This document shows positions 51,581 through 54,576 of a stretch of DNA of 64,000 nucleotides, in pieces; the first letter of the stretch is position 1; the number at the start of each line of letters is the position of its first letter. The notes below the pieces were generated by a model. The model was given only the letters and a program-made list of their open reading frames with translations. It was not told the origin of the DNA and made no database searches. A program made the position numbers and the translations under genes. The DNA is from Escherichia coli (GTDB lineage Bacteria; Pseudomonadota; Gammaproteobacteria; Enterobacterales; Enterobacteriaceae). The stretch lies in assembly GCF_011045215.1 (NCBI RefSeq), contig NZ_CP049201.1; one strand, written 5' to 3'.

Positions 51581-53566
51581 TTAATTTGGGGTTACGATAT
51601 TCACCCACAAATCGAAATTATCCAGACAGGCAATAATTTCTTCCAGTTTCGCACCATTGCCAATAATTTTGGCTTTCTTCGCTTTTACCAGATCCGCCAT
51701 TTTGGCTTGTCCGGTCAGCACGGCGTGCAGATCTTCACGACTGATGTAGAAAGAGGCGTCAGCTTGGGATTGCAGAGTTTTACGGTAGTTAAGCACGCTA
51801 TCGTTCAGCGTCAGGTTGAGGTTATCGCCGTTGCTCATATTGAAGTTCAGGCTGATATTTTTACCCGCGGCTTTCGCGCTATCGAGGCGAACGGCCATAA
51901 AGTCGAACAGCATTTCGACCGACATTCCGCGAATGGTGTCCGGGGAACCGGTGGTGCCGTGGCTGAACTTATGCACCCCTTCGCGCAGCTCTTTCGCGCC
52001 GGTCAGGTAGAAACCGCGCCATGTGGCGGACTCGGCCTGATAGCCCAGCTGTTCAAAGTTATTCGCTTGCAGATTCTTCGCGACCTGGTCACCCGGGTTG
52101 GCGGCAATCACCTGTTTCAGCAGTTCTGCCGACCAGCGGTAATCACCTTGCTTGTTCGCTTCTTGCGCCAGGTTGATGACACGGGCAGAACCGCCCAGCG
52201 CTTTCACGTAACGTTTGCCCATCTCTACCTGACCATACGGATGCAGGTTAGCCGGGTTACCGTCGTAATAGCCAAGATAGAAGTTATACACCGCGCGGGC
52301 GTTGTGGCTGACAGAACCGTAATAGCCACGGCTGGCCCAGTTATTGGCAAGTGCAGGCGGCAGCTTAATCATGTCGCCGATTTCATTCATGGTGTAGCCC
52401 TGGTTCGCCAGGTGCAGGGTCTGGTCGTGAATGTACTTGATAGTATCGCGATATTTACCAATATAATCATTGATATGCTTATTGCCCCAGACCGGCCAGG
52501 TATGCGGCATAAACAGTACTTCCGCGTCGTTACCCCACATATCCAGCGTTTCGTTCAGGTACTCGGTCCACTTGCTGGTATCGCGGGTTTTCGCGCCGCG
52601 CAGAGTGTAGAAGTTGTGCAGGGTATGCGTGGCGTTCTCGGCGGTACACAGGGCTTTCAGGGCCGGAATATAGAAGTGCATTTCGGCTGGTGCTTCGCTA
52701 CCTGGGGTCATCAGGAAGTCAAACTCCAGGCCGTCGATAATCATCTTCTCGCCAGTTCTGACGATAGTTTTAGTCGGTGCAATAATGCTCGGGTCGCCCG
52801 TTGCCAGCGTCACGCCAAGGCCATTACCCACGTTGCCTTGCGCGTTGTGTGGCAGTAACAGACCGTAAGAGTAGAGCGCACGGCGGCTCATGATGTTACC
52901 CGCCAGCACGTTTTCGCTGATGGCTTCGTCCATAAAGCCAGCAGGGGCAATCACCTGAACTTTGCCGGATTTAACATCGGCTTCAGAGATAATACCTTTC
53001 ACGCCACCATAGTGGTCAGTGTGGCTGTGAGTGTAAATAACGGCAACAATCGGTTTTTGCGGACGATGCTGGAAGTAAAGGTCAAGTGCGGCTTTTGCGG
53101 CAGGTGGCGTCACCAGTGGGTCAATAACAATAATGCCTTTCTCGCCCTCAACGAACGTAATGTTAGAGATATCCTGGCCGCGCACCTGATACATTTTATC
53201 GGTGACTTTGAACAGGCCAGAAATTCCGTTGATCTGCGACTGACGCCACAGGCTGGGGTTTACGGTTTCCGGCGCTGCGGCATTAATATCAAATTTGTAA
53301 TCGTCCGCGCGGTAGTAAACTTTACCGTTCGCATCACGCAGAATACCTTCATCCAGCAGCGGGGCGATAAATCCACGCTGGGCATCGTCAAAATCCTGAC
53401 GATCGCTAAACGGTAATGATTTGGCGTAATTCTGATTAACCTGTTGGGTATATTGAGTGGCGGCTTTCGCTTCCTCTCTCGCGTTAGCGGTATTTACCAT
53501 CATGCCGCTGGCGGCAGTTAACGCAATAACAATCCTGCTCAAACGGAATAACCGAGAGTTATTCAT
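51581..53566 (-). CDS. yjcS: putative alkyl/aryl-sulfatase (metallo-beta-lactamase fold)
   Basis: 661-aa ORF from MNNSRLF with signal peptide and HxHxDH motif ([10 protein letters not shown]). Confidence 0.92.
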
Positions 53567-53818
53567 ATAAATCTCCATTTATCATTTATGTCGTAAATAT
53601 GTAATCCATGCAAAATACGTCATTTAAAGCTGGCGTTATCATAATTGGGAAATTGCGACTTTAATAAGTGGAAGTGTGAGCAGAACGATCCATTTTATTA
53701 GGCATTTGTGCTGAAGAGGGAAAAGTACGCGAATTTATTATCCCTGTAAATAATATGAGGTGTTTTATATATTTATTATATATATTGTACTTCGGCAAAT
53801 ACTGAGCACAATTAATCA

Positions 53819-54136
53819 ATGCAACCGGTGTTTTTTATTAAAAAACGTACCGGAGCAATGGGCGGTCATGTCGCTGGCACCGCAGGATTCTGTGTTGCTG
53901 TGCCAGCCTTTTATTCATGGTCAATGAGTGAGGGGATTGATAAAGAAACCAGGTCGTCAGAGCGCACTGATTATCCGCATTACGCCAGTGAAGTTGCACT
54001 GGCTTTTGGTTCACGAGTGGTTGGCCTCGAACTGGCAAAAATGATTGTGGATGCGTGGCTGGGCGCACAGTACGAAGGCGGTCGTCATCAACAACGCGTG
54101 GAGGCGATTACGGCAATAGAGCAGCGGAGAAATTGA
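53819..54136 (+). pseudogene. rpiB-like remnant (ribose-5-phosphate isomerase B family) lacking the catalytic core
   Basis: 105-aa ORF with weak translation signals; retains ...SSERTDYPHYAS... and C-terminal ...AFGSRVVGLELAKMIVDAWLGAQYEGGRHQQRVEAITAIEQRRN (RHxxR motif) but has no GxLICGTGxG active-site loop; sits immediately upstream of yjdP where K-12 has rpiB. Confidence 0.5.
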
Positions 54137-54204
54137 GATTCATCCACTACTTGCATGGATGAGTAATGACTAATGTGGATAGAGTTTCTTTTTGAGGTTG
54201 GCTA

Positions 54205-54534
54205 ATGAAACGCTTTCCGCTATTTCTTTTATTCACCCTGCTCACGCTGTCCACCGTTCCGGCCCAGGCCGATATTATCGACGACACCATTGGCAATATT
54301 CAGCAGGCGATTAACGACGCTTATAACCCTGACCGTGGGCGAGACTATGAAGATTCGCGCGACGACGGCTGGCAGCGTGAAGTGAGCGACGATCGGCGCA
54401 GACAATATGACGACCGCCGCCGCCAGTTTGAAGATCGTCGCAGGCAACTGGACGATCGCCAGCGCCAGCTTGATCAGGAGCGTCGGCAGCTGGAGGATGA
54501 AGAGCGGAGAATGGAAGATGAGTATGGGCGATGA
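54205..54534 (+). CDS. yjdP: small secreted low-complexity protein
   Basis: 109-aa ORF with signal peptide (cleavage after AQA) and Arg/Asp/Gln/Glu-rich periodic DDRRRQ-like repeats. Confidence 0.85.
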   Translation: MKRFPLFLLFTLLTLSTVPAQADIIDDTIGNIQQAINDAYNPDRGRDYEDSRDDGWQREVSDDRRRQYDDRRRQFEDRRRQLDDRQRQLDQERRQLEDEERRMEDEYGR

Positions 54535-54576
54535 GGTAGGCTCGGGTGAGGGGGCCAGCGCGCACATTCCCTCTCA

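Follow-up and report, generated by a model that had tools for sequence, protein, structure and literature searches.

The locus between yjcS and yjdP raises the question of whether a short stretch of Escherichia coli DNA is the scar of a lost als-rpiB module or a site that the module never reached, and what the single sizeable open reading frame (ORF) lying in it represents. It was studied in a window of 64 kb (64,000 nucleotides, contig NZ_CP049201.1), to which all coordinates refer unless another locus is named. The gap between both genes, put at about 640 bp in an initial annotation, measures 638 bp (53567-54204): yjcS, a minus-strand gene, has its RefSeq start (MNNSRLF...) at 53566, and the ATG of yjdP is at 54205. 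In K-12 MG1655 the same interval spans 7,270 bp, and its locus annotation bears out the gene order that had been given, yjcS-alsK-alsE-alsC-alsA-alsB-alsR-rpiB-yjdP, in which all six als genes are encoded on the minus strand and rpiB alone on the plus strand. The als operon was said to be absent, and indeed blastn of the K-12 stretch (L002 3162-10138) against the whole window returned only two rpiB fragments; neither als genes nor a second rpiB were found anywhere in the 64 kb. The interval showed no match to the O157:H7 island (L003 10389-19676), the OI167 genes lmvR, lmuKAIZYX and lmvK not being present, and an Rfam scan of 53300-54500 at E values up to 1 found no family. The features of the locus are the following.

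51581-53566, minus strand: yjcS (alkyl sulfatase), left anchor gene, from the ORF and the RefSeq annotation of the collinear locus.
53567-53790, no strand: AT-rich upstream region of yjcS (G+C about 31%), common to all locus states, from alignment.
53791-53867, no strand: relic-specific 77-bp segment with its own hairpin (about 53825-53853), a gap in the alignment of the others.
53819-54136, plus strand: 105-codon ORF, read here as a chance fusion, the sole sizeable ORF of the interval.
About 53868-53920, minus strand: 3' remnant of alsK with terminator hairpin, stop and last codon, from blastn and alignment.
53921-53928, no strand: 8-bp junction of the large deletion, TCAATGAG, unassignable bases, from direct reading of the sequence and blastn.
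53929-53998, plus strand: rpiB middle fragment, rpiB nt 84-153, residues 29-51, from blastn.
53999-54008, plus strand: lone remaining copy of the direct repeat CTGGCT(G/T)TTG, where the blastn segments overlap by 10 nt.
54009-54136, plus strand: rpiB 3' end, residues 108-149 and stop, with Arg133 and Arg137, from identity and Pfam.
54137-54204, plus strand: native rpiB-yjdP intergenic region of 68 bp, with 1 difference from K-12 in the alignment.
54205-54534, plus strand: yjdP (DDRRRQL repeat protein), right anchor gene, from the ORF and annotation.

Both flanks of the interval are ordinary E. coli sequence. The yjcS gene is 98-99% identical to that of K-12 across most of its length, and the stretch 53400-53790, which comprises its 5' end and the AT-rich upstream region, corresponds to L002 2770-3161 with 95% identity. 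The upstream region by itself (53567-53790) aligns with L002 2937-3161 of K-12, and with the O157:H7 locus (L003) as far as 53786; near-identity to K-12 was seen over 53565-53731, with a hypervariable block at about 53729-53757. On the other side, 53999-54400, holding rpiB nt 313-450, the spacer and yjdP, equals L002 10001-10402 with 99.5% identity. The 240 bp upstream of the ORF (53579-53818), described as extremely AT-rich, contain 31.2% G+C against 52.6% in the 64-kb window. Judged by these alignments, the AT-richness is mostly that of the normal yjcS upstream region, also found in K-12 and O157:H7, and no property of a scar.

Between these flanks, the remnants of the module are separated by two lesions. 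The 77-bp segment at the left has no counterpart in K-12, in a second als-positive strain (L004) or in the O157:H7 island, and among 5,426 complete E. coli genomes it was found in relic-bearing genomes only. Its hairpin has a free energy of -15.2 kcal/mol (z -4.0). The alsK remnant that follows is 77% identical to L002 3163-3214 of K-12 and consists of the terminator hairpin (about 53873-53907; -19.1 kcal/mol in the window, z -3.1), the stop codon (53915-53917) and the last codon (53918-53920). The stem of this hairpin carries a compensatory pair, K-12 GUUGGCAC/GUGCCAAC being replaced by GCUGGCAC/GUGCCAGC in the window. A deletion of ~6.56 kb (~6,557 bp) comes next, equivalent to L002 3215-9771 and reaching from alsK to alsR plus rpiB codons 1-28. 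Beyond its junction, rpiB resumes: 53929-54008 represents rpiB nt 84-163 (L002 9772-9851), identical to K-12 at 71/80 nt (88.8%), and the middle fragment, which holds Arg40 and the TDYPHYA motif, shows 90.7% identity to the second allele, that of L004. In K-12 the 10-bp repeat is present as CTGGCTGTTG at rpiB nt 154-163 (L002 9842-9851) and as CTGGCTTTTG at nt 313-322 (L002 10001-10010), while the window has one copy. The copies match at 9/10 positions, and these 10 nt are precisely what the two blastn segments have in common. The second lesion is thus a 159-bp (53-codon) in-frame deletion between the repeats, by which Cys66-Gly-Thr68-Gly and His99/Asn100 were lost. From the repeat copy onwards, the 3' piece (53999-54136) is identical to rpiB nt 313-450 of K-12 at 138/138 nt.

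The micro-homology that was to be looked for at the deletion borders was seen at one lesion of the two. It is present at the 159-bp deletion, in the form of the 9/10 repeat CTGGCT(G/T)TTG, and was not established at the ~6.56-kb deletion, where no clear repeat was seen and 8 unassignable bases stand between the two sides. A terminator scan yielded one terminator-like hairpin (53984-54003) arising at the junction, and such hairpins occur with the frequency that chance predicts.

All the remnants, the terminator and stop of alsK followed by rpiB nt 84-163 and 313-450, stand in K-12 order and orientation, and the likeness to K-12 rpiB, at 71/80 and 138/138 nt, is far above chance. Because internal pieces of alsK and rpiB occur in the right order and orientation, the locus points to loss and not to a site that was never occupied. 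The interval is therefore best read, with a probability of about 0.9, as a non-functional and enzymatically inert deletion relic of the als-rpiB module, shaped by two lesions. According to this reading, an ancestor would have carried alsK-alsE-alsC-alsA-alsB-alsR-rpiB between yjcS and yjdP. One lesion would have removed ~6.56 kb, beginning just inside the 3' end of the alsK coding sequence and ending at rpiB codon 28, so that the als genes were all lost together with the start of rpiB and the promoter region between alsR and rpiB; the other, the 159-bp in-frame deletion between the 10-bp direct repeats, bears the signature of replication slippage or short-homology recombination. Besides the terminator hairpin of alsK, the leftovers would be two pieces of rpiB, 70-80 nt for residues 29-53 and the final 138 nt of the gene, and a frame that happened to be open across 37 non-coding codons up to an ATG would have produced the 105-codon ORF. 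The relic now segregates at ~29% beside the intact als-rpiB module (~63%) and OI167 (~8%).

The composition of the ORF agrees with such an origin. Codons 1-37 are non-coding read-through, derived from the 77-bp segment, within which the ATG at 53819 falls, and from the antisense of the alsK terminator; codons 38-62 represent RpiB residues 29-53, and codons 63-105 residues 107-149. A run of 37 codons without a stop would arise by chance with a probability of about 0.17, so that the open upstream frame needs no special cause. The kinship with RpiB, proposed from motifs, was recovered by phmmer against PDB sequences, with E. coli RpiB (1NN4/2VVR) as the match at E about 3e-33, in blocks joining ORF 38-65 to RpiB 29-56 and ORF 60-105 to RpiB 104-149. 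By using Pfam, the LacAB_rpiB model (PF02502; length 138) was matched at model positions 102-138 (E 6e-9) and, weakly, at 27-49 (E 1.7), and the ORF does not contain a full-length domain (about 138-150 residues).

Both end motifs that had been pointed out, TDYPHYA and GGRHQQRVEAITAIEQ, are found in the translation, and the C-terminal phosphate-binding arginines (RHxxR: Arg133, Arg137) are kept in a GGRHQQRVEA stretch identical to K-12. The central CGTG loop, noted as lacking, is missing: ILICGTGVG does not occur in the translation, and RpiB residues 54-106 are deleted. Residues 1-28, with Asp9/His10, are also missing, and rpiB nt 1-83 and 164-312 have no counterpart in the window. The catalytic and binding roles of these residues are presumed here from E. 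coli RpiB structures, their positions having been read from the K-12 sequence. As regards expression, the translation signals are as poor as had been described, with no Shine-Dalgarno-like sequence ahead of the ATG at 53819 (cacaattaatcaATG). A promoter scan of 53400-54400 gave no sigma-70-like site, and the native alsR-rpiB intergenic region, with the promoter region, is deleted in the window. With the catalytic residues gone, no start signals and a substitution pattern near neutral (see below), the description of the ORF as a non-functional rpiB fragment is upheld, and we conclude that the ORF is a pseudogene. In RefSeq it is named RpiB/LacA/LacB family sugar-phosphate isomerase (WP_001183282.1), a name that is misleading. 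The error is systematic, since WP_001183282.1, WP_001183287.1, WP_001182929.1, WP_001183290.1 and WP_001522249.1 are all called sugar-phosphate isomerases, and none of the five proteins has any catalytic residue of RpiB.

The distribution of the locus states was evaluated in 5,426 complete E. coli genomes. The relic state, taken as a match to at least 80% of 53787-54010, was counted in 1,569 genomes (29%), matches to the intact-rpiB part of the query only in 3,410 (63%), and the OI167 island, by an lmvR query, in 411 (7.6%); other states account for a few dozen genomes (<1%) and include an IS1-mediated deletion that runs from yjcS through the 5' end of yjdP. Each relic-bearing complete genome among those listed has one rpiB-like place. 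Two rpiB matches of low identity (H26, H27) were considered as divergent als alleles and set aside, their low identity being only yjdP repeat-number variation. For closer comparison, a set of 15 relic sequences was assembled from the window, the enteroaggregative strain EAEC 042 and 13 genomes chosen to span the range of identities. All 15 measure 638 bp, are free of indels, have both junctions in common and keep the 318-bp ORF intact, and the 14 genomes differ from the window at 2-16 positions of the interval. The diversity within the relic is 2-3%, about 2% in the interior, and is arranged in two main haplogroups. A chimeric query for the large deletion combined with an undeleted rpiB core was matched in 0/5,426 genomes. 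Since the junctions are the same in all 15 sequences, with no indels, the lesion pair has a single origin, without a sampled intermediate, and it is old.

The interior of the relic deviates from the intact gene in a manner that raises the matter of its ancestry. Over the 75 nt of the middle fragment, 7-9 positions, about 10%, separate the relic alleles from every intact E. coli rpiB that was examined. The relic differs from K-12 at 8/75 positions in this fragment and at 0/138 in the 3' fragment (Fisher p 1.8e-4), and the switch in divergence coincides exactly with the internal junction. Escherichia whittamii, a different species, has only 2 differences from K-12 in the middle fragment and 13 in the 138-nt 3' fragment. 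A parental-allele scan, carried out with a degenerate pattern coding for SERTDYPHYA against species-representative genomes, led to two loci only, that of L013, a cryptic Escherichia labelled E. coli and only 91.7% identical to K-12, and that of E. whittamii (L014). Three of the relic differences, GAG29, CGC40 and Gln49 to Glu, are also present in L013, and the variable sites of relic and L013 overlap at 4 positions against 0.5 expected (hypergeometric p 3e-4, on short sequences). The relic-type allele outright occurs in neither L013 nor L014, both of which loci stop short of the yjcS-alsK junction, and an intact allele with the 77-bp segment was found in none of the 5,426 E. coli genomes.

We infer from these comparisons that the interior of the relic may go back to a lineage of als-rpiB alleles other than the one that E. 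coli carries intact today. Exchange with als-positive strains would have homogenised the flanks up to the indel boundaries and not across them, leaving the interior as an isolated, drifting block. A further step, put forward here tentatively and with less than even odds, is that the ~210 bp of 53791-53998 could be the last trace of a vanished als-rpiB lineage, the site being an old three-state polymorphism across phylogroups. The bases shared with L013, the compensated alsK terminator, the extra 77-bp hairpin segment and an interior shielded by indel boundaries are the observations that go with it. If true, the yjcS/yjdP site would hold an als-rpiB / relic / OI167 polymorphism and not a simple loss.

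One alternative is that an ordinary E. coli allele simply decayed neutrally after the deletion, and that neither introgression nor a separate lineage had a part in the divergence of the interior. Two of the relic-specific changes are non-conservative (G34E, W36R), which fits inactivation, and the relic is old enough to have accumulated its 2-3% of internal diversity. However, decay of this kind has to contend with the three K-12 differences that match L013, and with an overlap of 4 sites against 0.5 expected in these short sequences. The compensatory pair of the alsK hairpin suggests divergence while the terminator was still functional, and decay is altogether missing from the 3' fragment (0/138). 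Purely neutral decay is possible but less likely than not.

A different explanation would see in the 105-aa ORF a genuine gene, whose small product, based on the C-terminal helices of RpiB, has been neo-functionalised and kept by selection. In 15/15 sequences the ORF is uninterrupted and equally long, its 3' part is of low diversity, and the NCBI pipeline annotates a protein for it under several WP accessions. Against this, the ORF has neither a Shine-Dalgarno sequence nor a promoter-like site, the promoter native to rpiB has been deleted, and the first 37 residues come from non-coding DNA and terminator antisense. The segregating sites in the 15 sequences comprise 9 non-synonymous and 5 synonymous changes, over 241 non-synonymous and 74 synonymous sites, giving an omega of about 0.56 that in this small sample does not differ from neutrality (p 0.22). 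Compared with intact RpiB, the relic alleles carry Gly34Glu/Asp and Trp36Arg, and one variant (strain 1579, L015, and 042) has Gly87Cys in the conserved GGRH motif (GGRH to CGRH), so that conserved RpiB positions are hit by non-conservative changes. Only about 70/149 residues of the Rossmann-like fold are left, and folding is unlikely. A selected gene at this position is thus highly improbable, and the pseudogene reading is retained.

Some observations count against the relic reading. No frameshifts or stops were seen in the ORF in 15/15 sequences, and the intactness of all of them, with no indel in 638 bp despite 2-3% substitution diversity, could hint at constraint, in a sample that is small and with an omega not significantly below 1. 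The 8 unassignable bases at the large junction and the failure to find an intact allele with the 77-bp segment are further points of this kind. The pi value of the 3' rpiB piece is 0.005, compared with about 0.02 in the interior of the 15 relic sequences. This low 3' diversity may be due to selection and not to recombination, the expression signals of yjdP being one conceivable target.

Deletion and non-acquisition had initially been offered side by side. The first stands, by virtue of the alsK and rpiB remnants in K-12 order, and the second is excluded by the same remnants. A lineage that never had the als-rpiB module, its interval being the ancestral empty site, would match the shortness of the interval and the lack of the als module in many strains, and OI167, which can sit at the same site, suggests an insertion hotspot. 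An empty site is nevertheless hardly credible in the presence of the alsK terminator, stop and last codon together with two rpiB fragments that are 89-100% identical to K-12. Finally, a deletion that took place recently, in this strain only and from an als-rpiB locus like that of K-12, for which the identical 3' rpiB fragment and the 99.5% identical yjdP stretch might be invoked, has a probability close to nil, as the relic is present in 1,569 genomes, including the phylogroup D strain 042, has diversified by 2-3% into two main haplogroups, and differs from K-12 by about 10% in an interior that also contains the 77-bp segment K-12 is without.

In terms of meaning, the relic is an ordinary, widespread and already sequenced pseudogene at a known variable site, and the als-negative state and its phenotype have been published. 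What is mildly novel is the two-lesion anatomy with its slippage signature, the single old origin, the ancestry discontinuity and the RefSeq mis-annotation. Relic strains should be D-allose-negative and without the RpiB back-up for RpiA. The predicted loss of D-allose use and RpiB in this strain and in ~29% of complete genomes bears on metabolic models and on rpiA-knockout designs in non-K-12 hosts. With its two fixed junctions, the relic is also a clean single-origin marker by which recombination in the neighbourhood of the yjcS/yjdP hotspot can be followed. Its practical value is modest.

Among known systems, the closest is K-12 rpiB itself, the alsI/alsB-linked gene of ribose-5-phosphate / allose-6-phosphate isomerase B (PDB 1NN4, 2VVR), which occupies the same site in the same orientation and is separated from the downstream yjdP by 68 bp, as in the relic. 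The relic keeps Arg40, Arg133, Arg137 and TDYPHYA from it, while residues 1-28 and 54-106, the promoter and the ribosome-binding site are gone and 37 unrelated N-terminal codons have been added. Another example is EAEC 042, for which Chaudhuri and others described that D-allose is not metabolised and that the als operon, including rpiB, is completely absent (Chaudhuri et al., 2010; PMC2808357). This strain shares with the window the 638-bp interval, both junctions and the 318-bp ORF, with 16 differing positions; the remnant goes unmentioned in that paper.

In EHEC O157:H7, the OI167 island (lmvR-lmuKAIZYX-lmvK) is found between yjcS and yjdP instead of the allose genes (PMC10128022). Its left boundary lies within a few bases of the point at which K-12 and the relic diverge (53786 vs 53790), and its right boundary is inside the signal-peptide codons of yjdP. 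Unlike the relic, OI167 is a functional 9.3-kb island for sugar utilisation (lyxose/mannose) with a two-component system, and it holds no rpiB or alsK remnant. Lastly, the relic resembles pseudogene deletions formed between short direct repeats by slippage, as 159 bp were lost exactly between 10-bp repeats and one copy was kept. What sets it apart is that its deletion is in frame and lies beside a much larger one, at whose junction no clear repeat is seen.

When 5,426 complete E. coli genomes were compared over 42000-64000 of the window, the top match was the baboon isolate PapM-32-1, with 98.7% identity, and all other matches reached at most 98.0%; on this basis, the source strain has no close representative in that collection. 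Strain YZLc23-1 (L009) also bears the relic, the 638-bp yjcS-yjdP interval with the als operon deleted and rpiB gutted. In the 5' half of yjcS (window 52820-53400), this strain has just 83.5%-87.5% identity to the window, while over the remainder of the gene the identity is 98%-99%. Judged from these alignments, yjcS is strongly mosaic within E. coli, and since such deep alleles adjoin the variable site, introgression or a very old polymorphism is suggested.

Within the relic, the junction of the internal deletion, an in-frame loss of 159 bp inside rpiB at the direct repeat 53999-54008, forms a terminator-like hairpin at 53984-54003 (GCCAGTGAAGTTGCACTGGC followed by TTTTGGTT), where one such site was expected by chance in the scanned stretch.

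Strain SCPM-O-B-8794 (L013, NZ_JAATUR010000012.1), labelled E. coli, has just 91.7% identity to K-12 over alsA-yjdP, and for this reason it probably belongs to a cryptic Escherichia lineage. Both in this locus and in that of E. whittamii (L014), similarity to K-12 ends directly after yjdP, so the phn operon does not come next in either.

The length of yjdP is itself variable, with 330, 348 and 357 bp in the window (54205-54534), in a second als-positive E. coli (L004, 10207-10554) and in locus L005 (10207-10563), respectively. These differences stem from changes in repeat number, and in strain DETEC-E480 the signal-peptide region carries tandem copies of the CTGTTCACG unit. Downstream, only 42 bp separate yjdP from phnP in the window (54535-54576), versus 146 bp in K-12 (L002, 10537-10682) and in several other strains. 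The K-12 surplus of ~104 bp holds inverted repeats of the GGGGAGAGGG/CCCCTCACCCC type and on that account resembles a small extragenic repeat element.

A fourth state of the yjcS/yjdP locus is found in strain LF4-1, which has lost yjcS and the entire als-rpiB region and carries an IS1 copy between ytcA and a 5'-truncated yjdP (L006, 11249-12227). In O157:H7, the right boundary of OI167, the EHEC lyxose/mannose island between yjcS and yjdP, is not intergenic and lies within the first ~9 codons of yjdP, in the signal peptide (L003, 19562-19752 versus window 54137-54260). Despite this boundary inside yjdP, K-12, the relic and O157 all have the same 68-bp spacing between the stop codon of the upstream gene and the ATG of yjdP.
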